From an uncultured bacterium (GTDB lineage Bacteria; Actinomycetota; Acidimicrobiia; Spongiisociales; UBA5794): a stretch of DNA of 64,000 nucleotides. The translations under genes and the position numbers were made by a program. A model generated the notes under the pieces. That model saw only the letters and a list, made by a program, of their open reading frames with translations. It made no database searches and had not been told where the DNA came from. Shown piece by piece: positions 3 through 58,352 of the stretch (position 1 is its first letter; every line of letters starts with the position of its first letter). The DNA lies in the NCBI GenBank assembly GCA_963801165.1, contig CAWDDT010000010.1, positions 233,045 to 297,044 of the forward strand, written 5' to 3'.

Positions 3-335
3 TCGCTCGACGCAGCCCACGTGATGAGGGAGGCGTTCGACCGGCGCCGGGTCACTATGCACCGGATGCTCAACGAGATCAACGGGGTGAGCTGTGTGGA
101 ACCCCTGGGTGCCTTCTACGCCTTCCCGAACATGCAAGGGCTGCTCGGTCGCGACCTCGGTGGCAAGACCGCAGATACGACCCTCGATCTCGCCGGGCTG
201 GTCCTCGACGAGGCCCAGGTCGCCTTTGTCCCCGGTGAGGCCTTTGGCCTCGGCGGATACGCACGATTCTCGTTTGCGCTCGCCGATGAGGATCTGGTGG
301 AAGGGCTACGACGGATCCAGGAACTCGCCGGCTGA
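3..335 (+). CDS. PLP-dependent aminotransferase class I/II (AspC-like), 5'-truncated by window edge
   Basis: C-terminal motifs [17 protein letters not shown] and ARFSFA. Confidence 0.85.
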
Positions 336-1526
336 CAGCTTGTCGATCTCGGCGATGACTGTTTGGCCGGCGGCGGATTTCGGATTGATCAGCGACGAGT
401 GGTCAACGCCTTCCAGCTCCCGGTAGACGACGGTGTCACCAGCCTCACCCGCCGCAGCTGCATACGCCCGGCTCATCTCAACCGGTACTGCGATGTCGTC
501 AGTTCCGTGGATAAGGACCTGACGTACCCCGAGCGGAAGCAAGCTTCGGGGCGAACTTGCCGCATACCGCTCGGCGCCATCTTGCGGGGTTCTGCGCAGA
601 AACTCGGCTACGGCGCCGTCGCCGAGATTGCGTGCGTATGCGTCTTCGAGATCGGCGACCGGAGCGAGAGCGACCACGGCATGAGGATGTACCCGGGCTT
701 CGGGGTCAGGTATTCCATTCGAGAGATGTGGGCGCGCCGCCGCCCACAGTGCCAGATGTCCTCCCGCCGAGTGTCCGACGAGGACGACCCTGCCTGGATC
801 CAGGTCGTAGTCCGGAGCCAGCGCCGCCAGGCGGTCGGCGCCGGCTGCAACATCCTCGAGCGTGGCCGGCCAGCCGCCGCCGGTGCCGACCCTGTGGTAC
901 TCCAGATTCCAAGTCGCCCAGCCGTGCGAGCAGAGCTCCACAGCGAGGCTATCCATGATGTCCCGTGTCCACCGGTCCCGCCAGAAGCCTCCGTGGATCA
1001 GCACGGCCACCGGGTGCGGCCCGTCACCCTCGGGTGTCAGCAACGCACCCACCTGGTCTTCGGCAGGTCCATAGCGGATGACCTCGGGCCGGACGGACGC
1101 TTGGTTGACGAGGTACTCGAGGGCGTAGCGATATCCGTCGATGCCGCGACCTCTGATCATGTAGTCGCAGGCGGGTGCGATCACAGAGGTCCTGCGCCAG
1201 TTGTCACGCTCTTTGATGTTCGAGATGTGGACCTCGACCGCGGGGAGGGCGATGGCTGCGATGGCGTCGTGGAGCGCATAGCTGTAATGGGTGAGGGCGC
1301 CGGCGTTGATGATGATGCCGTCCTGGGCGCGCCGATCGTCGTGGAGACGGTCGATGATCGCTCCCTCGTGGTTCGATTGAAAGCACGTGACGGTTACGCC
1401 GAGGTCCAATCCCCATGAAATGACGAGCGTCTCGAGCTCGTTGAGGGTCGTCGCACCATAGACGGCCGGCTCGCGCTCGCCGAGCAGGTTGAGGTTGGGG
1501 CCGTTGATGACCAGGACGCGCTTCAT
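306..1526 (-). CDS. aroQ: Type II 3-dehydroquinate dehydratase fused to an alpha/beta hydrolase
   Basis: [33 protein letters not shown], then HGGFW and GHSAGG in the same ORF; start moved to MKRVLVING, with TACGCT 7 nt upstream. Confidence 0.9.
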
Positions 1527-1690
1527 AGTCGGGAGCGTATTGGATTGTTGCCGTCCGGTCGAGTCTCTATTCGCCATCGGGTGCGTAGCCGAGGATGTCG
1601 CCGGGCTAGCAGTCGAGCACCTGCCATAGGGATCGAGTGACGCGAAACGGATACGTCTTTGTCGAAAGTGAACAAGAACCAGAGCCGCTA

Positions 1691-17219: not shown

Positions 17220-17981
17220 TCAGTAGGTGCGGACGACCTTGATGGCGGCCTCGGCCTTCTCACCCTCGGTCTTTAGCGAGCTAGCGGCAGAGTCCATACG
17301 ATGAACCGCGATCCGGCACCATTCCCCCGCGATGCCTTTGATGATGTCGGTGGCGTCCTCGGGGCCGTAGACCCAGCGGGAGTAGCTCGGTCCCATCAGC
17401 TCCAACCGAATGCCGCCCTCTGGGAACTCCTCGCCGGCCTCGGCAAATGCATACGGGAGCATGCGATGAGCCAGCCAGGCGACGTGACGGATGCGTGATG
17501 TGTCGGCGGTCGGGTCGTCTTCTTCATCGTAGGTGAGCCGCCCCTCCATTGCGTCTTTGATGTCCAGACCGTGCGCCCAGGTCTCCATCAGACGCAATGT
17601 GGCATAGGCGCGGGCGCTCATGTCGCCGCTGAACCAGGGGACCCGGTCGCCGCCGTCCATACGCGAGAGCGCATCGACGACGTCGGCGCGGCTGTTGCGC
17701 CACCATTCGATCACCTGCTGGTAGCGCATCTTGCGACCCTCTTTGACCCCCCGCGCGGTCCACTCGTCAATGTCGTCCTTGTTCACACGAGAAACGACCT
17801 TTTTCCCGTCGGCAAGCACCTCGGCGGCGAAGCGTTCGGAGTAGGCGAGGTGGCTCACCGTGTCCTTGATGCTCCAGCCGGGCGCAGAAGTCGGCAGATT
17901 CCACTGCCGCTCGTTGATCCGTTGCAGGAACTGGTCGAGGGATTGTTGCTCAGCTACGAGGTCAGAGAGTATCTCACGCAT
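17220..17981 (-). CDS. Maleylpyruvate isomerase family mycothiol-dependent metalloenzyme
   Basis: PGWSIKDTVSHL, RLMETWAHGLD. Confidence 0.85.
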   Translation of the reverse strand: MREILSDLVAEQQSLDQFLQRINERQWNLPTSAPGWSIKDTVSHLAYSERFAAEVLADGKKVVSRVNKDDIDEWTARGVKEGRKMRYQQVIEWWRNSRADVVDALSRMDGGDRVPWFSGDMSARAYATLRLMETWAHGLDIKDAMEGRLTYDEEDDPTADTSRIRHVAWLAHRMLPYAFAEAGEEFPEGGIRLELMGPSYSRWVYGPEDATDIIKGIAGEWCRIAVHRMDSAASSLKTEGEKAEAAIKVVRTY

Positions 17982-18005: not shown

Positions 18006-19073
18006 CTATGCGGGTGAATCCTCCGCGGCGGCATTGAGCTGATCGACCATCAATCGGAGCTTTCCGAGGTGACGTCGATCGAAGTGGAGACGGATCCTCG
18101 GCAGGTCGACGTGGTCGTCGGTGCGGATCTCGGCGGGGGTTGCGGCGATCTTTTCGATCCTGCCTTTTACGAGGATGTCGCCGAACTCGTCGTTGAGACG
18201 CTCGATCAAGGCGACCGACGGCTCATGCTTGAGACGGAGGACCAGCTTTCCGTCCACATAGCGTTGCGAGTGGTAGTTGTTGTAGAAGCGTCTGATCTCG
18301 TCGGCGGCCTCTTCAGCGTTGTTGGTGTAGGTGAACAGGCTCAGGTCGTCCGGGGCGATCATGCCCTGATCTCGCAGCGTCTCGACGAAGTCGAACCACT
18401 CTTTCCAGTACCCGGTTCCCTCGGCCTCCATCAACACGATCGGATGCATGTCCGACTTCCCGGTTTGGGTGAGCGTCAGCAGCTCGAACGTCTCGTCCTG
18501 GGTGCCAAACCCACCTGGAAACACGGCAAACGCGTCGGATTCCTTGACGAAGACGAGTTTTCTGGTGAAGAAGTACTTGAAGTTGATGAGCCGGCTCTCG
18601 TGTACGTACGGGTTGGCGTCGGCTTCGAAGGGGAGCCGGATATTGACCCCGAATCCGTAGTCACTGCCGGCGCCGCGATTGCCGGCCTCCATGATCCCGG
18701 GGCCGGCTCCGGTGATGACCATCCACTGGTAGCCGTCCGCCATCAGGTTGGCGAACTCTCCCGCCAGCTGGTAGTTGGGGCTACCGGGAGCGGTACGAGC
18801 CGAGCCGTAGACGGTCACCTTCGGTGTCTCCGTGTAACGGGAGAACACCATGAATGAGTAGCGCAGCTCCTTGAGCGCGCTATTGACGATCTTGAGATCT
18901 CCGCGGTCGGTGTCGTCGCGGTGCATCTTGATGATCGAGACGATCATCTCGCGAATGAGATCATCGTCGTGGTCGTGGCCGGCGTGGCCGGCGACCGCGT
19001 CGCTGACGAGGGCGGCCAGCTGATCGTCCAGTTCTTTGTTACCCAGGTGATAGTTCCGCATCAGGCTCCGCAT
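18006..19073 (-). CDS. LOG family (TIGR00730) nucleotide phosphoribohydrolase
   Basis: GSART, TGAGPGIMEA, FFTRK, PGGFGTQDE. Confidence 0.9.
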   Translation of the reverse strand: MRSLMRNYHLGNKELDDQLAALVSDAVAGHAGHDHDDDLIREMIVSIIKMHRDDTDRGDLKIVNSALKELRYSFMVFSRYTETPKVTVYGSARTAPGSPNYQLAGEFANLMADGYQWMVITGAGPGIMEAGNRGAGSDYGFGVNIRLPFEADANPYVHESRLINFKYFFTRKLVFVKESDAFAVFPGGFGTQDETFELLTLTQTGKSDMHPIVLMEAEGTGYWKEWFDFVETLRDQGMIAPDDLSLFTYTNNAEEAADEIRRFYNNYHSQRYVDGKLVLRLKHEPSVALIERLNDEFGDILVKGRIEKIAATPAEIRTDDHVDLPRIRLHFDRRHLGKLRLMVDQLNAAAEDSPA

Positions 19074-21042: not shown

Positions 21043-22032
21043 TCACCGGTACGGATTCTCGCCCGGGCCGCGCCGGGCCACCGCCGACCAGACGGTCTCG
21101 TAGTGGTCACGATCGAAGCGGTCGACGTGGGGGAGCACGAACTCTTCCCAGGTGCGGCGCAGCGGATCCGGGGCCGTCGCGTAGACCCGTAGGCCCGCCG
21201 GGATCCGGTCGAGCACGGTCCGCAGGCTCATCGGGGTCTCTACGCGTGTCTGGGAATCCGTGGAGCTGAATGAGGCGTTCACCTCGACGGCCAGCTTGGC
21301 GATGGGCTCCGAGAACACCGGCTTCAGGCCGCTATGGCGGCGATGGAGCATGCTCACCAACTCCTCCTCGGCGGGGAAGTCCTTCTCCCAGATGATCCAG
21401 CGATCGGCGAAGGCCTTGTTCAGCGTCTGGGTGCCTGCGTAGTCGCGGAGATCGGTCGGGTTGAGCGTCCCGAACACACGGACGTCGTGGCGAAGCCGCA
21501 CCATCTCGCCAGTCGGTAGCTCCAGGGCTTGATGACGGTCGAGCAGACCGTGCAAAGCGAACAGGGTCTCGGCACCGGCAGCGTTTAGCTCCGACAGGTT
21601 GATCAAGGCCGGACCGCGCAGCGCTCTTGTTATGTCGCCATCTTCCCACCGGCTTTCGGTTCCGCCCTTGCCGTCGCCGTAGAGCTTCACCGATCCGATC
21701 AACGTGATGTCACGAACCTCACCCGTCAAGGGGATCCGGTAATGCGGCATACCGAGTGTCGCGGCGAACTGCTCGAGATCATGATCCTTGCCGGTCCCCA
21801 TGTGGCCACGCAAGGCGAGGTGCAGCGGAGAGTCCTTGAAGTGGTTGCGCCGCACCTCCTCCACCTGGGCGAGGCGATACAGCATCCCGAGATCCACGTA
21901 ATACGGATCCGGATCGGGGATGTGCTCGATCCGCAGGTCGTGGTCCGGCATGTCGGCCGGGATCTCGGTTTTCTCTAGCTCGATGGGCGGGCCTTCCCCT
22001 GCAGGATCGTCGAAAGTCACCATCTCAGGCAT
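21043..22032 (-). CDS. MoxR/CobS/NorQ-like AAA+ ATPase with atypical Walker motifs
   Basis: GHMGTGKD, WEDGDITRAL, LINLSELN, GTLNP..YAGT..LNKAFADRW. Confidence 0.85.
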   Translation of the reverse strand: MPEMVTFDDPAGEGPPIELEKTEIPADMPDHDLRIEHIPDPDPYYVDLGMLYRLAQVEEVRRNHFKDSPLHLALRGHMGTGKDHDLEQFAATLGMPHYRIPLTGEVRDITLIGSVKLYGDGKGGTESRWEDGDITRALRGPALINLSELNAAGAETLFALHGLLDRHQALELPTGEMVRLRHDVRVFGTLNPTDLRDYAGTQTLNKAFADRWIIWEKDFPAEEELVSMLHRRHSGLKPVFSEPIAKLAVEVNASFSSTDSQTRVETPMSLRTVLDRIPAGLRVYATAPDPLRRTWEEFVLPHVDRFDRDHYETVWSAVARRGPGENPYR

Positions 22033-24247
22033 TGGTGATGCTCCTTTGTTTGCTCAGATATTCGGAAGAGGAATGTGCCCACCACGTCTCGCCGCCGGCG
22101 GCAGCGATGGTGCGGAGCAAGCTCGAGCGGACACCGTCGATCATCGCTCTGGTGAGCTCCGCCGGCCACTCTACGACCTGGTGGCGTTGGTACGCCGCGG
22201 TCACAGTGTCGTCTCCGATGCCGATGCCCAGCACCGTGGTGCCGTTCCTCTCGGCGGCGTCCACGGATTCGGCAAGGGCTCGGACCGTGCCCCGCGTCAT
22301 ACCGTCGGCGAGGACGACGAGGATGCGGGTCGATACGTGCCGGGCGGCGAGCCGCTGCGTCGCATAGGTCACGTTGAACTCGTCGACGTTGGCTGCTTTG
22401 TCGAACATCGACACCGGCGGAGTGTTTTCCGGGTCTCTGCGTGCCGCATGCCCTGCTTCGCGGGGCGCAGCCGCCATGTAGAAGAGACCGGCCATCACGT
22501 CTTCGTGCTGGCGCCACCGGTTGTCGAACGGTTTGACCAGATAGTGGTTGACGGTGCGGGAGAGCCGGTCGGCCGAGCCACCATGGCTGCGACGCAACCC
22601 ACCGATGGCGCTGTGTCTCCGGCTGGTGAAGGTTCGCTCGGTGTCGTCGCCGGTGGCGGGGAAGGAGCGGTTGAACACGGCGACTTCGAAGTCGATCTGG
22701 AGCTCATGGCAAAGCGCGGCGAGTGACCACGCACCGAGAGTCGCGGCGGCCAGGGCCCACGGGGCTTTGCGCGCGGTACCCACCCGGAGCGGTTGCAGCA
22801 TCGACGCCGACCCGTCGACGAGCAGGCTGACGGCATAGCTGCGTCGTGTCGGCAGATCGCGCCGCTCGAACATACGCTCGTACAAACCTGCACCGAGCAG
22901 CAGCGCCGAATACGGCGAGAGATCACCTGCGTCGAAACCGGAGCGGAGCCCCCGCCGCTGGTTGGCCAGGAACAGCGGATACAGCTCCCCGGCTACCCGG
23001 CGTTGCTCCACACCCCATTGTTTGGCTGCGGCGTCGAGACGCTCCCTGCCTTCTTTGGCGAATTTGCGGAAGTGGTCGGGAAACGGGCCGACCACGAGCT
23101 TGCCGGTCTGTCCCGTTGGCAAATAGATGGAAGGGGCCTGCGAGACACGGACGAGCTGCTCGGTGGCGGGATCTCCGGCCTGGTCGGCGTCGCCCGCCTT
23201 GCCGTGTTCGGCGGAGACGGATTGGGCGGCCGCCCACGATTGCTCGTATGACTCGATGTCTCGCAGTGGTGGCGTGACGATTCGTACCGCGTCAACCGAA
23301 TCACTGATCGCAGCGCTGTCGTCCTCGCCTTTGCCGGTTCGGACGTGCTTGGCGTCCGCCTTGGTGACGATGTGGGCGAGGCCGTGGATGCGTGCCACCT
23401 CGAGAAGCTGTAGCGCCAGCCCACCAACGGTCCACGGGTCGTCGGCGGCGGCGACGTCGTCTATGAAAGGCTGGGCGTCGTCGAGAGCCATCGCCACGTG
23501 TGCCGGTAGCTGTCGTTGCAGCTTGTCTTTTGTGGTGTAGCCCCCGACGAGAAGGAAGCAAGCGAGCGCGTACTGTCCGAGGGGACGAGCCTGTTCCATA
23601 CCCCCCGGCGTAGCAGCCAGATAGAGGTCGGACAGCACCGAGCGCACGCCGCCGAACCCGTCGAGGAGGACACGTTCCTGTCGGGCATCTTCGAGCGAGA
23701 AGAACAAGGCCTCGGCAGCTGGACCTCCGATCTCGCTTATCGCATCAAGCAGACTCACCGGCTGTTCGTCGAGGGCCGGGACCGATCCGGGGATGGGGCT
23801 CTCTGCCTTGTCGAGATCGTCGTCGTCCTCGAACAGCATGGGTGCCCGCTTCGGGAGAGGCATGGGTAGACCCTCGGGTTCCTCGGTCGTGGTCCTGTTC
23901 TCCCGGTGGGCGAGCCAGGCTCGGGGGATCGGACGCTTCTCGTCGAAGTCGGAGGCCAGAAGGTGGACCACCTCGTGTAGCGCCGACGTGAGTGCCACCT
24001 CGGCCGGCGTCACCGGGGCGCTGCGGGCATAGGCTGCCTGGAATACGCCGGGGTCGATGACGATCTCGTCCTCGCTGCCGGAAGCCTGCGAGCCGAGCCG
24101 GACAATCAGGTCCTCCTTGCCGGCGATGGTCCTGGCGAACCGGGTTATGGCCGGGGCGACCCGCTGATAGCGCGCCACGACGGCCTCGATCACCCTCTCT
24201 TCGGGGGGAAGCACCTCATTCAGGACTGACTGATCTCGACCGCGCAT
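22025..24247 (-). CDS. CobT/NorD-like vWA domain protein with N-terminal HEXXH
   Basis: ALHEVVHL, LEDARQE, MIDAS LLVDGSASM and VLADG, GIGIG; 8-nt overlap with the AAA gene. Confidence 0.8.
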   Translation of the reverse strand: MRGRDQSVLNEVLPPEERVIEAVVARYQRVAPAITRFARTIAGKEDLIVRLGSQASGSEDEIVIDPGVFQAAYARSAPVTPAEVALTSALHEVVHLLASDFDEKRPIPRAWLAHRENRTTTEEPEGLPMPLPKRAPMLFEDDDDLDKAESPIPGSVPALDEQPVSLLDAISEIGGPAAEALFFSLEDARQERVLLDGFGGVRSVLSDLYLAATPGGMEQARPLGQYALACFLLVGGYTTKDKLQRQLPAHVAMALDDAQPFIDDVAAADDPWTVGGLALQLLEVARIHGLAHIVTKADAKHVRTGKGEDDSAAISDSVDAVRIVTPPLRDIESYEQSWAAAQSVSAEHGKAGDADQAGDPATEQLVRVSQAPSIYLPTGQTGKLVVGPFPDHFRKFAKEGRERLDAAAKQWGVEQRRVAGELYPLFLANQRRGLRSGFDAGDLSPYSALLLGAGLYERMFERRDLPTRRSYAVSLLVDGSASMLQPLRVGTARKAPWALAAATLGAWSLAALCHELQIDFEVAVFNRSFPATGDDTERTFTSRRHSAIGGLRRSHGGSADRLSRTVNHYLVKPFDNRWRQHEDVMAGLFYMAAAPREAGHAARRDPENTPPVSMFDKAANVDEFNVTYATQRLAARHVSTRILVVLADGMTRGTVRALAESVDAAERNGTTVLGIGIGDDTVTAAYQRHQVVEWPAELTRAMIDGVRSSLLRTIAAAGGETWWAHSSSEYLSKQRSITNA

Positions 24248-24302
24248 GACTAATGATTTTCTCACACGCGTCAAGTCCGGAGGCGCGGTCTATCGTGGCT
24301 GG

Positions 24303-24722
24303 ATGGACGATCTGTCGATACCCGGGGGCCCGACCATCCCGGCGGGCGAGTTGACGTGGCGTTTCGACACGTCGGGAGGCCCCGGAGGCCAGCATTCCAA
24401 CAAGAGCTCCACACGTGTCGAGCTGCTGTTCGACGTTACGACGTCCGTGGCACTCGACGATGCGATGAAGACTCGGATTCTGCGGCAGAAGGGCGTCGAG
24501 CTGGGGGTGATCAGGATTCGGGTGTCCGAGTCGCGCTCGCAGTGGAAGAACCGTCAGCTCGCCCGGCAGCGTCTCGCCGAGTTCCTCTCCCGGGCGCTGG
24601 CGCCACCACCGCGGCGGCGGAAGCTCACCGTGCCGGGTCGGGCGGCGCGGGAACGTCGCCTGGCAAAGAAGCGGGATCGATCCGAGACCAAGCGCCTCCG
24701 CAGACCACCCGAGCCGGAGTGA
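24303..24722 (+). CDS. arfB: Alternative ribosome rescue peptidyl-tRNA hydrolase
   Basis: SGGPGGQHSNK, RSQWKNR, basic C-terminal tail. Confidence 0.9.
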   Translation: MDDLSIPGGPTIPAGELTWRFDTSGGPGGQHSNKSSTRVELLFDVTTSVALDDAMKTRILRQKGVELGVIRIRVSESRSQWKNRQLARQRLAEFLSRALAPPPRRRKLTVPGRAARERRLAKKRDRSETKRLRRPPEPE

Positions 24723-56933: not shown

Positions 56934-58352
56934 GGGCCTGTCAGATGCTTTGTGTAAGTGGGGTGGCCTGACATAGTGGCCCTGGACGCGGGTGGCGTTT
57001 GGGGTCTGTGGAAGGACCCACTGATGATGATTGACAAGGACGAGGCGACGGAGGTGGCGAAGGCTGCTGCGACTCCGCTGGTGTCGGCTGAGGTGTTGGA
57101 CGAGTTGATGGCTCGGGTCAATGATGAAGGAGCCGAGCTGTTGGGCCCTGAGGGGCTGTTGTCGCAGGTGACCAAGGCGGTGTTGGAACGGGCTTTGGAT
57201 GAGGAACTGACTGGCGAGTTGGGTTATGAGAAGCATGACCCGGCGGGTCGGGGTTCTGGTAACTCGCGGAACGGCACCAGTTCGAAGACGGTGTTGACCG
57301 ATATCGGTGCTATCGATTTGGAGATACCTCGGGATCGGAACGGCGATTTCGAACCGAAGATCGTCCCTAAGGGCACGACCAGGTTGAAGGGCTTCAATGA
57401 GCGGATCATTGCGTTGTATGCCCGAGGGATGACGGTTCGTGATATCCGTTCTCATCTCGCAGAGATCTACGGGGTTGACGTGTCACCGGATCTGATCTCG
57501 AAAGTCACCGACGCTGTGTGGGATGAACTCGAATCCTGGCGCAACCGGCCGCTGGATGCGGTGTATCCGATTGTCTATATCGACGCTCTGAACATCAAGA
57601 TCCGAGACGGGATCGTCCAGAACCGCCCGGCCTATCTGGCCGTCGGAGTTGATTTGGAGGGCCGCAAACACGTCCTTGGGATCTGGATCGGCGACTCGAA
57701 CGGTGAAGGCGCCAAGTTTTGGCTCAAAGTGCTTTCCGAACTCAAGAACCGCGGCGTCAACGACGTGTTGATCGTCGCCTGTGACGGTCTCAAGGGTCTC
57801 CCCGAATCGATCGAAACCGTGTGGCCACAAGCAGTGATCCAGACATGTGTCGTGCATCTGCTGCGAGGTTCGTTCCGATACGCCTCATACAAAGACCGCA
57901 AGAAGATCGCCACCGCGCTCCGGCCGGTCTACCAGGCGACATCAAAGGAAGCCGCCGTCGAGGCGCTCGGCAACTTCGAAGACGATTACGGGACAAAGTA
58001 TCCCGCCATCGTCAAGTTGTGGCGGGACGCTTGGGAAGAGTTCACCCCCTTCTTGGACTATCCGCCGGAGATCCGCCGAGTGGTTTACACCACCAACATG
58101 ATCGAATCGATCAACTACCAGCTACGGAAGGTCACCAAGAACCGGGGGCACTTCCCCACCGAGAAAGCAGCCCTCAAACTGCTTTATCTCGCGGTGCGTA
58201 ACATCACTACCAACAGAGGAGGTGACACCGGCACAGGAACATGGGGATGGAGCAAGTGCCTCAACGCACTCGCCATCTACTTCCCCGGACGATTCACCAT
58301 CGTCTAACCAAAACCGAATGCCACCCACTTACACAAACGTGCTGACACCCCC
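56934..58352 (+). mobile_element. IS256-family insertion sequence
   Basis: Imperfect TIRs GGGCCTGTCAGATGCTTTGTGTAAGTGGG and reverse-complement GGGGGTGTCAGCACGTTTGTGTAAGTGGG; flanks CCCTTGGGC and CCCTTGGC. Confidence 0.9.
57024..58307 (+). CDS. IS256-family transposase
   Basis: PRDRNGDFEP, YIDAL, ACDGLKG, QTCVVH, YTTNMIES. Confidence 0.95.
   Translation: MMIDKDEATEVAKAAATPLVSAEVLDELMARVNDEGAELLGPEGLLSQVTKAVLERALDEELTGELGYEKHDPAGRGSGNSRNGTSSKTVLTDIGAIDLEIPRDRNGDFEPKIVPKGTTRLKGFNERIIALYARGMTVRDIRSHLAEIYGVDVSPDLISKVTDAVWDELESWRNRPLDAVYPIVYIDALNIKIRDGIVQNRPAYLAVGVDLEGRKHVLGIWIGDSNGEGAKFWLKVLSELKNRGVNDVLIVACDGLKGLPESIETVWPQAVIQTCVVHLLRGSFRYASYKDRKKIATALRPVYQATSKEAAVEALGNFEDDYGTKYPAIVKLWRDAWEEFTPFLDYPPEIRRVVYTTNMIESINYQLRKVTKNRGHFPTEKAALKLLYLAVRNITTNRGGDTGTGTWGWSKCLNALAIYFPGRFTIV

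Follow-up and report, generated by a model that had tools for sequence, protein, structure and literature searches.

In a 64,000-nucleotide stretch of DNA from an uncultured bacterium of the Acidimicrobiia (contig CAWDDT010000010.1; hereafter the window), we identified a gene for a CobS-like AAA+ ATPase in which the pair of residues that holds magnesium in other P-loop enzymes has been exchanged. The serine or threonine that follows the Walker A lysine (position K+1) is replaced by an aspartate, D83, and the Walker B motif's aspartate is replaced by a serine, S147; the exchange occurred on the stem of one clade and was then frozen by purifying selection. Judged by its sequence, the protein is the AAA+ motor in a CobS/CobT-like pair of motor and adaptor; the two genes that encode the pair are inherited vertically and belong to the core gene set of one order of Acidimicrobiia (Actinomycetota). 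It is plausible that the exchange is compensatory and that the enzyme may still be catalytic.

The serine or threonine after the Walker A lysine and the aspartate of Walker B are treated as near-universal chemical residues of P-loop nucleoside triphosphatases. As described in the excerpt of PMC9599734 available to us, the K+1 hydroxyl acts as the fourth magnesium ligand and is the donor in a short hydrogen bond with the Walker B aspartate, and both residues are "strictly conserved". A recent general mechanism treats this hydrogen bond as the proton trap of catalysis. No account of an aspartate at K+1, or of a family with GKD and SE motifs, was found in the literature that we searched on Walker residues, on MoxR and HExxH proteins and on cobS, cobT and cobN in the Acidimicrobiia, and the GKD/SE family is a CobS-like subfamily for which this literature gave us no description.

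Assignment and fixation of the exchanged residues

The ATPase reading frame begins with ATG and has an AAGGAG ribosome-binding site eight bases ahead of it. Motifs were assigned by alignment and not by pattern matching, and their coordinates (Table 1) were checked by scripted translation. Residues 71-211 of the protein cover positions 1-138 of the 139 in the Pfam AAA_5 model (PF07728) at 44.4 bits, with a gathering cut-off of 22, and phmmer alignments to three solved midasin AAA domains set GTGKD on GxGKT and LINLSELN on IVLDELN, VLLDEIN or VLLDELN. On the basis of the Pfam hidden Markov model (HMM) and the PDB alignments, D83 occupies the place of the canonical magnesium-binding serine or threonine, S147 that of the Walker B aspartate, and E148 that of the catalytic glutamate. 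The set of residues expected of a competent AAA+ site is otherwise complete by sequence, with the Walker A lysine, the Walker B glutamate, the sensor 1 asparagine, a trans-acting arginine finger and the sensor 2 arginine all present. The original prediction, which had read a GKD Walker A, an SE Walker B and retained GTLNP and FADRW motifs from the sequence, was borne out at every coordinate by translation and by HMM and PDB alignment. We find it very improbable that the motifs have been misassigned and that some other part of the sequence supplies the true Walker B acid. An hhalign comparison with phage CobS-like proteins does put a gap around the Walker B strand, but the Pfam model, the three midasin domain alignments and a custom core HMM all set S147-E148 on the D-E, and the spacings to sensor 1, arginine finger and sensor 2 match those of CobS.

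The assignment of the protein to MoxR, by contrast, had to be given up in favor of a CobS-like member of AAA_5. The match to MoxR proper (Pfam AAA_3) reaches 16.8 bits against a gathering cut-off of 27. The best NCBIfam model is TIGR01650, for CobS (3.9e-13, residues 28-274 on model positions 30-274), although its 49.3 bits fall short of the CobS equivalog cut-off of 558.55. The strongest profile match of the ATPase is to the phage CobS family phrog_249 (3.9e-26), and hhalign with phage CobS-like proteins gives a probability of 96.8% over 220 columns. The public names of its homologues are only "AAA family ATPase" or "MoxR-like ATPase".

All 120 of the close homologues listed (77-93% identity, from 1599 matches in all) have GKD together with x-S-E-L-N. 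We assembled a family alignment of 138 unique sequences (the window protein with 121 others from databases, and 16 genes taken from genomes of the order), and in it K82, D83, S147, E148, N150, N191 and R211 are each found in 138 of 138. Neither the serine or threonine of the canonical P-loop after the Walker A lysine nor the aspartate (rarely glutamate) that ends its Walker B strand is therefore present in any member. R271, the likely sensor 2 residue, is invariant in a 19-sequence subset. D83 and S147 are likewise present in 114 of 114 family loci, a partly redundant set, where D83 is encoded by GAC (87) or GAT (27) and S147 by TCC (56), TCG (35), TCT (14), TCA (7), AGC (1) or AGT (1). Since both aspartate codons and all six serine codons are used, it is the amino acids and not the bases that are held at these positions, and the pattern is neither chance nor sequencing error.

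Selection on the family is strong. The ratio of nonsynonymous to synonymous substitution (dN/dS, by the Nei-Gojobori method) has a median of 0.12 and a range of 0.006 to 0.31 in 72 unique genes and 2083 pairs, limited to pairs with dS between 0.2 and 1.5. The nucleotide-binding core (residues 70-215) is invariant at 88 of 146 positions, the N-terminus at 12 of 69 and the lid at 29 of 114; the post-sensor-1 loop (13 of 15 invariant) and the helix-2 insert (Table 1) are the most conserved loops of the ATPase. The exchange that gave D83 and S147 is genuine, has gone to fixation and is under selection. The further claim of the original prediction, that this is not a decaying enzyme, is supported by the same dN/dS and core values and by the retention of K82, E148, N191 and R211 across the stem of the clade. 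A dead pseudo-ATPase, which would bind no nucleotide and serve only as a structural partner of the neighboring VWA protein, seems to us quite unlikely: the P-loop glycines, K82, E148, N191, R211 and R271 do not vary, conservation is highest in the nucleotide-binding core, and the few midasin-like sequences that we saw with a serine in Walker B had also lost the glutamate, which is kept here as E148.

We considered three broken copies (L210 in genome G030, L211 in G014 and L212 in G005) as possible intermediates and rejected them. In these few-contig assemblies the ATPase and its partner are split over two or three frames, and GHMGTGKD and LVNLSELN can still be read in the G030 copy. The split copies look like assembly indel errors rather than pseudogenes.

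Beyond the family, the canonical pair is the rule in the relatives sampled. In an exhaustive HMMER search of representatives clustered at 50% identity, of which we inspected the best 150 of 3195 matches, the family amounts to a single representative of full length and some fragments, none of them at odds with GKD and SE, and the next single-domain proteins, 42% and 39% identical, have GKT/DE and GKS/EE. The 23 metagenomic outgroups have threonine or serine at K+1 without exception, and a Walker B aspartate (17) or glutamate (6). Phage CobS-like proteins (83 loci, 59 unique), read out through an HMM alignment, keep Ser/Thr, Asp, Glu, Asn and Arg at the five catalytic positions in 59 of 59, which brings the nearest single-domain relatives with GK[ST] and [DE]E to 82 of 82. 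No protein outside the family combined an aspartate at K+1 with a serine in Walker B among 1032 domain matches to midasin-like and other listed proteins. A regular-expression match to AANVDELN in P0132 was rejected as a Walker B motif, as it lies outside the aligned part of that protein.

In the maximum-likelihood tree a branch with 100/100 support separates the GKD/SE sequences from all others. The stem is 4.7 changes per site long, and branches within the clade are at most 0.36; long branches meet at this stem, as the tree tool warned, and the sister group of the clade is not settled. The distinct subfamily that had been proposed is thus recovered as monophyletic and strongly conserved, and in the sequences sampled no close homologue had GKT/DE and neither change was seen alone. 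Only 29 positions are conserved both in the family and in the outgroups, among them G76, G79, G81, K82, E148, N150, N191, R211 and S269. That the catalytic residues are among the few positions kept across the stem is our best argument that selection for nucleotide chemistry persisted during the exchange of the magnesium pair. The same stem brought M78, D85 (K+3), N145 (Walker B -2), R107, T110, N252 and four additional residues in the helix-2 insert.

One subgroup near the family (P0234, P0273-P0276 and the protein at L046:5041-6126), referred to here as sister, shows another coordinated variation of the active site, with Glu-Glu in Walker B and the sensor 2 arginine absent (STG for STR). L046 (G127:C18:1-12000) holds the nearest genomic outgroup ATPase, with GKT and an E-E Walker B, convergent to a gene for a 593-residue VWA protein without HExxH. 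By sequence inspection (Pfam was applied only to the ATPase and part of the VWA protein), this ATPase is surrounded by genes resembling a corrinoid methyltransferase system, among them those for a CobW-like GTPase and a B12-binding-domain-like protein.

Chemistry of the exchanged site

With the glutamate, sensor 1, arginine finger and sensor 2 all retained, we give even weight to the proposition that the ATPase with its exchanged pair is still ring-forming, Mg-ATP-dependent and active. In such an enzyme the D83 carboxylate would take over as a magnesium ligand, directly or through water, or as a second-shell acid, and the S147 hydroxyl would become its hydrogen-bond partner; the exchange would leave a carboxylate facing a hydroxyl, and the two side chains between helix alpha1 and strand beta3 would have the same total length as before. 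The more specific version, a working P-loop ATPase built on an inverted module in which D83 binds Mg2+ directly as a buried acid with S147 as its hydrogen-bond partner, is one that we hold tentatively, at somewhat less than even weight.

Several observations weigh against a catalytic site of this kind. Replacing either residue abolished activity in the enzymes tested, according to the excerpt of PMC9599734. Aspartate reaches about one atom further than threonine; repulsion of the phosphates is conceivable, as is a pairing with K82 instead. The exchange arose only once: in the family, the 23 outgroups, the 59 phage proteins and the best 150 of 3195 representatives we saw one origin and no INTERMEDIATES, and no independent lineage with GKD and SE turned up in the sequences sampled, again the best 150 of 3195 representatives. 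Of the covariation that the original prediction expected, one part stood, in that GKD and SE always occur together in the homologues, and the other did not, as a single branch (n = 1) affords no statistical covariation. There are also the other family-specific changes near the site (M78, D85, N145, R107, T110 and N252), and because of these the site may have been reshaped for a task that is not ordinary hydrolysis.

A possible, though in our judgment less than likely, reading is that the protein is a nucleotide-binding switch or scaffold, a timer or latch in which ATP would be bound for ring assembly and for the grip on the partner, with hydrolysis very slow or absent. The retention of the Walker A lysine, the arginine finger and sensor 2 is no proof of turnover, since these residues also serve binding and assembly, and very high conservation would suit any essential role that depends on nucleotide. 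The glutamate is usually lost, however, from sites that bind nucleotide and do no more, and here the catalytic E148 and the sensor 1 N191 were both kept across a stem that altered most other positions. On the side of the switch, replacement of the K+1 residue or of the Walker B aspartate left the enzymes tested with crippled hydrolysis or none (PMC9599734, as excerpted).

The family-specific residues bear on another reading, an altered chemistry, which we think unlikely. The site might use another metal (Mn, Ca or a transition metal, held through D83, H84 and D85) or another nucleotide, or might pass through an acyl-phosphate intermediate on D83. The cluster D83-H84-D85, together with N145 and S147, does add polar and acidic ligands at the metal site, and CobS/NorQ-type systems act in metal-cofactor insertion, at least in the excerpted part of the CobST preprint. 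A histidine at K+2 is, however, also present in the GKT outgroups P0278, P0279 and P0284, and an asparagine at Walker B -2 is present in 4 of the 59 phage CobS-like proteins with the canonical pair, so N145 is not tied to the exchange.

The exchange, which would be either a new build of an ancient active site or a deliberately altered switch, is informative in both cases. Should the inverted module be real, it would offer, ready to hand, a reciprocal test of the proton-relay mechanism that has been proposed for NTP hydrolysis. If ATP is hydrolysed, single and double revertants would test the proton-trap mechanism directly; if it is not, the family would show the conversion of a motor into a switch by two substitutions.

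The CobT-like partner and the core gene pair

The ATPase is translationally coupled to a CobT-like partner gene, which lies directly upstream of it in 16 of 16 genomes (49-65% identity) and whose stop codon overlaps the ATPase start (Table 1). In the databases the partner is a "hypothetical protein" with no Pfam domain, and the copy in the window itself falls below every Pfam cut-off; weak Pfam matches occur within the partner family, to VWA in 12 of 17 members and to CobT_C in 8 of 17 (at E up to 10, best 9e-5). An affinity to CobT is suggested by profile comparison. The C-terminal half matches phage CobT in hhalign at 98.3% (E 1.1e-14), and the N-terminus matches the phage CobT family phrog_5298 at 9.4e-9. 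The MIDAS (metal ion-dependent adhesion site) of its VWA domain is complete, with D487, S489, S491, T574 and D657 all invariant and DxSxS in 120 of 120 homologues, and the ATPase gene thus has beside it a VWA protein with a complete MIDAS, as in the two-gene MoxR-like AAA+/VWA systems.

Alignment places the start of the partner at ATG 24247. On the opposite strand, at 24246-24722(+), a divergent gene encodes an RF-1-domain protein of 158 residues, which we take from its size to be ArfB-like; it overlaps the alternative TTG-start reading of the partner, and because of this overlap ATG 24247 is favored as the true start.

Near its N-terminus the partner has an HExxH motif, followed by an acidic EDARQE motif, each present in 119 of 120 homologues and missing only from a truncated protein. 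In alignment the HExxH falls on the HEVGH of phage proteins that are bona fide CobT (E 0.014) and pass the Pfam CobT and CobT_C cut-offs, and three of these (L127:322-2571, L128:629-2566 and L129:403-2553) share the pair HEVGH/HEVAH ... LEDTxIE. One preprint, in the part available to us, likens the CobT N-domain to the peptidase M48C domain, and phage cobT is often annotated as a peptidase (PMC8651126, likewise in excerpt). CobT-type adaptors may be zinc peptidases or derived from them. By analogy with CobST, NorQD and CbbQO, the N-domain of the partner would dock on the lid of the ATPase, a VWA "finger" would reach into the pore by way of the helix-2 insert and post-sensor-1 loops, and the MIDAS site would hold a client protein other than CobN.

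Table 1. Positions in the window of the ATPase gene, its partner gene, their motifs and the linked downstream genes
Feature	Position	Strand	Remarks
CobS-like AAA_5 ATPase gene, 329 residues	21043..22032	(-)	from Pfam, NCBIfam, PDB, phrog and hhalign comparisons
Walker A GHMGTGKD (G76-D83)	21784..21807	(-)	K82 kept; D83 (21784-21786) replaces Ser/Thr at K+1
D85 (K+3)	21778..21780	(-)	acidic, family-specific; hydrophobic or small in 23/23 outgroups
Helix-2 insert region, G113-D133	21634..21696	(-)	four residues longer than in outgroups; 13/21 invariant
Walker B LINLSE (L143-E148)	21589..21606	(-)	S147 (21592-21594) for Asp; E148 kept; N145 is Walker B -2
Sensor 1 GTLNP	21457..21471	(-)	N191
FADRW	21397..21411	(-)	arginine finger R211
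SLR, putative sensor 2	21220..21228	(-)	R271; spacing as for CobS R267/R271
CobT-like partner gene, 740 residues	22025..24247	(-)	from ATG 24247 (749 residues if TTG 24274); stop overlaps ATPase start by 8 nucleotides
Partner HEVVH (HExxH)	23963..23977	(-)	invariant
Partner EDARQE	23675..23692	(-)	acidic and invariant, downstream of HExxH; in phage CobT this place is taken by LEDTxIE
Partner VWA MIDAS DGSAS	22802..22816	(-)	further MIDAS residues T574 (22553-22555) and D657 (22304-22306)
LOG/SLOG-like gene and MDMPI_N/DinB-like gene	18006-19073 and 17220-17981	(-)	

The obvious role for a CobS/CobT-like pair, that of a cobaltochelatase, was rejected. Members of the CobN/ChlH family (PF02514) turned up in 0 of the 41 genomes, among them G000, which holds the window (G000:C10:233045-297044), and in 0 of 39 without the unpublished G027 and G038, in a search that matched 5 of 14 reference genomes as a control, and neither a canonical CobS nor a canonical CobT_C was found in the G000 genome. 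With CobN absent from all of these genomes, the CobNST system is excluded and the client is therefore other than CobN. In terms of its sequences, the pair is an orphan motor-adaptor pair, and the family would expose a CobS/CobT-like motor working without CobN and hence with another client.

The ATPase gene is present in 38 of 41 related genomes, including the two unpublished ones (36 of 39 without them), and in 26 of 26 good genomes (completeness of 90% or more, contamination of 5% or less) of one Acidimicrobiia order (24 of 24 without the unpublished two). An even sample of the phylum gave matches at E <= 1e-15 in 8 of 301 genomes, namely G000, six of the same order and one distant relative with 38% identity; the 15 genomes from other orders of Acidimicrobiia in this sample had no match. 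A scan of one genome per species (185,579 species) found 474 loci, and the best 80 of these come from metagenome-assembled genomes titled, with a few bins otherwise labelled, as Acidimicrobiia, Acidimicrobiaceae or Actinomycetota.

The surroundings of the pair are those of an ordinary chromosome, with lhr, dapB, an M16 peptidase gene, RNase J, ftsK, recA, RNase Y, miaB, miaA, dapF and lexA in the window. In 15 of 16 genomes (L030-L045) the few kilobases downstream of the ATPase contain a LOG/SLOG-like gene (PF03641) and an MDMPI_N/DinB-like gene, and in six of the 16 the LOG-like gene is at most 61 nucleotides from the ATPase or overlaps it; in the window a DUF520 gene, a reading frame without assigned identity and a HAD hydrolase gene lie between. 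This linkage may be only conserved gene order. The downstream DUF520/YajQ gene was rejected as a conserved partner, being so placed in only 5 of 16 genomes.

Two further features of the window are mentioned for completeness. A reading frame of 423 residues at 306-1577(-) joins a type II dehydroquinase (residues 21-156) to a BD-FAE/alpha-beta hydrolase (182-399), an unusual fusion if the reading frame is real. A Mutator-family transposase (1.5e-121) is encoded at 56958-58307(+), in the stretch of lowest G+C content in the window (0.61, compared with about 0.64).

Comparison with known systems

Departures from the canonical pair have been described elsewhere. The excerpt of PMC9599734 gives as exceptions a glycine at K+1 in nucleotide monophosphate kinases and a glutamate in Walker B; neither exchanges both residues, and the excerpt names no aspartate at K+1. 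TorsinA is an AAA+ protein that is functional with a non-hydroxyl residue at K+1, its Walker A being GxxxxGKN (PMC5628414, in excerpt). Torsin differs in keeping the Walker B aspartate and in having no arginine finger of its own, whereas here the aspartate is changed and the arginine finger is kept.

As a known defence system the pair was rejected, as neither the ATPase nor the partner matched any family of the PADLOC anti-phage defence models. Among the MoxR-like AAA+ proteins with VWA partners, NorQ/NorD and CbbQ/CbbO resemble the pair in belonging to AAA_5 and appear among the PDB matches of the ATPase at 5e-11 to 4e-9. To our knowledge, these systems have canonical Walker motifs, act on NO reductase and Rubisco as clients, and have partners without an HExxH domain. 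A VWA finger in the ring pore is the working model for systems of the NorQ/NorD and CbbQ/CbbO type (CobST preprint, in the part available).

The virus-encoded cobS-cobT clusters (phrog_249 with phrog_5298 or phrog_17276) have the same gene order as the pair described here, with the partner upstream, and in 3 of 3 loci that partner has an HExxH near its N-terminus and a VWA MIDAS motif. GHMGTGK is common to the two kinds of ATPase. The phage proteins, however, have GK[ST] and DE, whereas the ATPase of the window is a chromosomal core gene product, and identity between them is only 21-26%.

CobS, which acts as the motor in the aerobic cobaltochelatase CobNST and whose structure has been solved from Rhodobacter and Brucella, is also among the PDB matches of the ATPase. 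The residues given in the excerpts of 10.64898/2026.07.21.739949 and 10.64898/2026.10.09.757910 are, for Brucella CobS, a Walker A at G71-S78, D141-E142, N186, R210 and R271, and, for Rhodobacter CobS, T75, E138, N182, R206 and R267. The order and spacing of the motifs are alike, 83/148/191/211/271 here against 78/142/186/210/271 in Brucella CobS, the helix-2 insert and post-sensor-1 loops are conserved, and the partner has both a CobT-like N-terminus and a VWA domain. The ATPase described here differs from CobS in having an aspartate for the serine or threonine at K+1 and a serine for the aspartate of Walker B, and in occurring without CobN.

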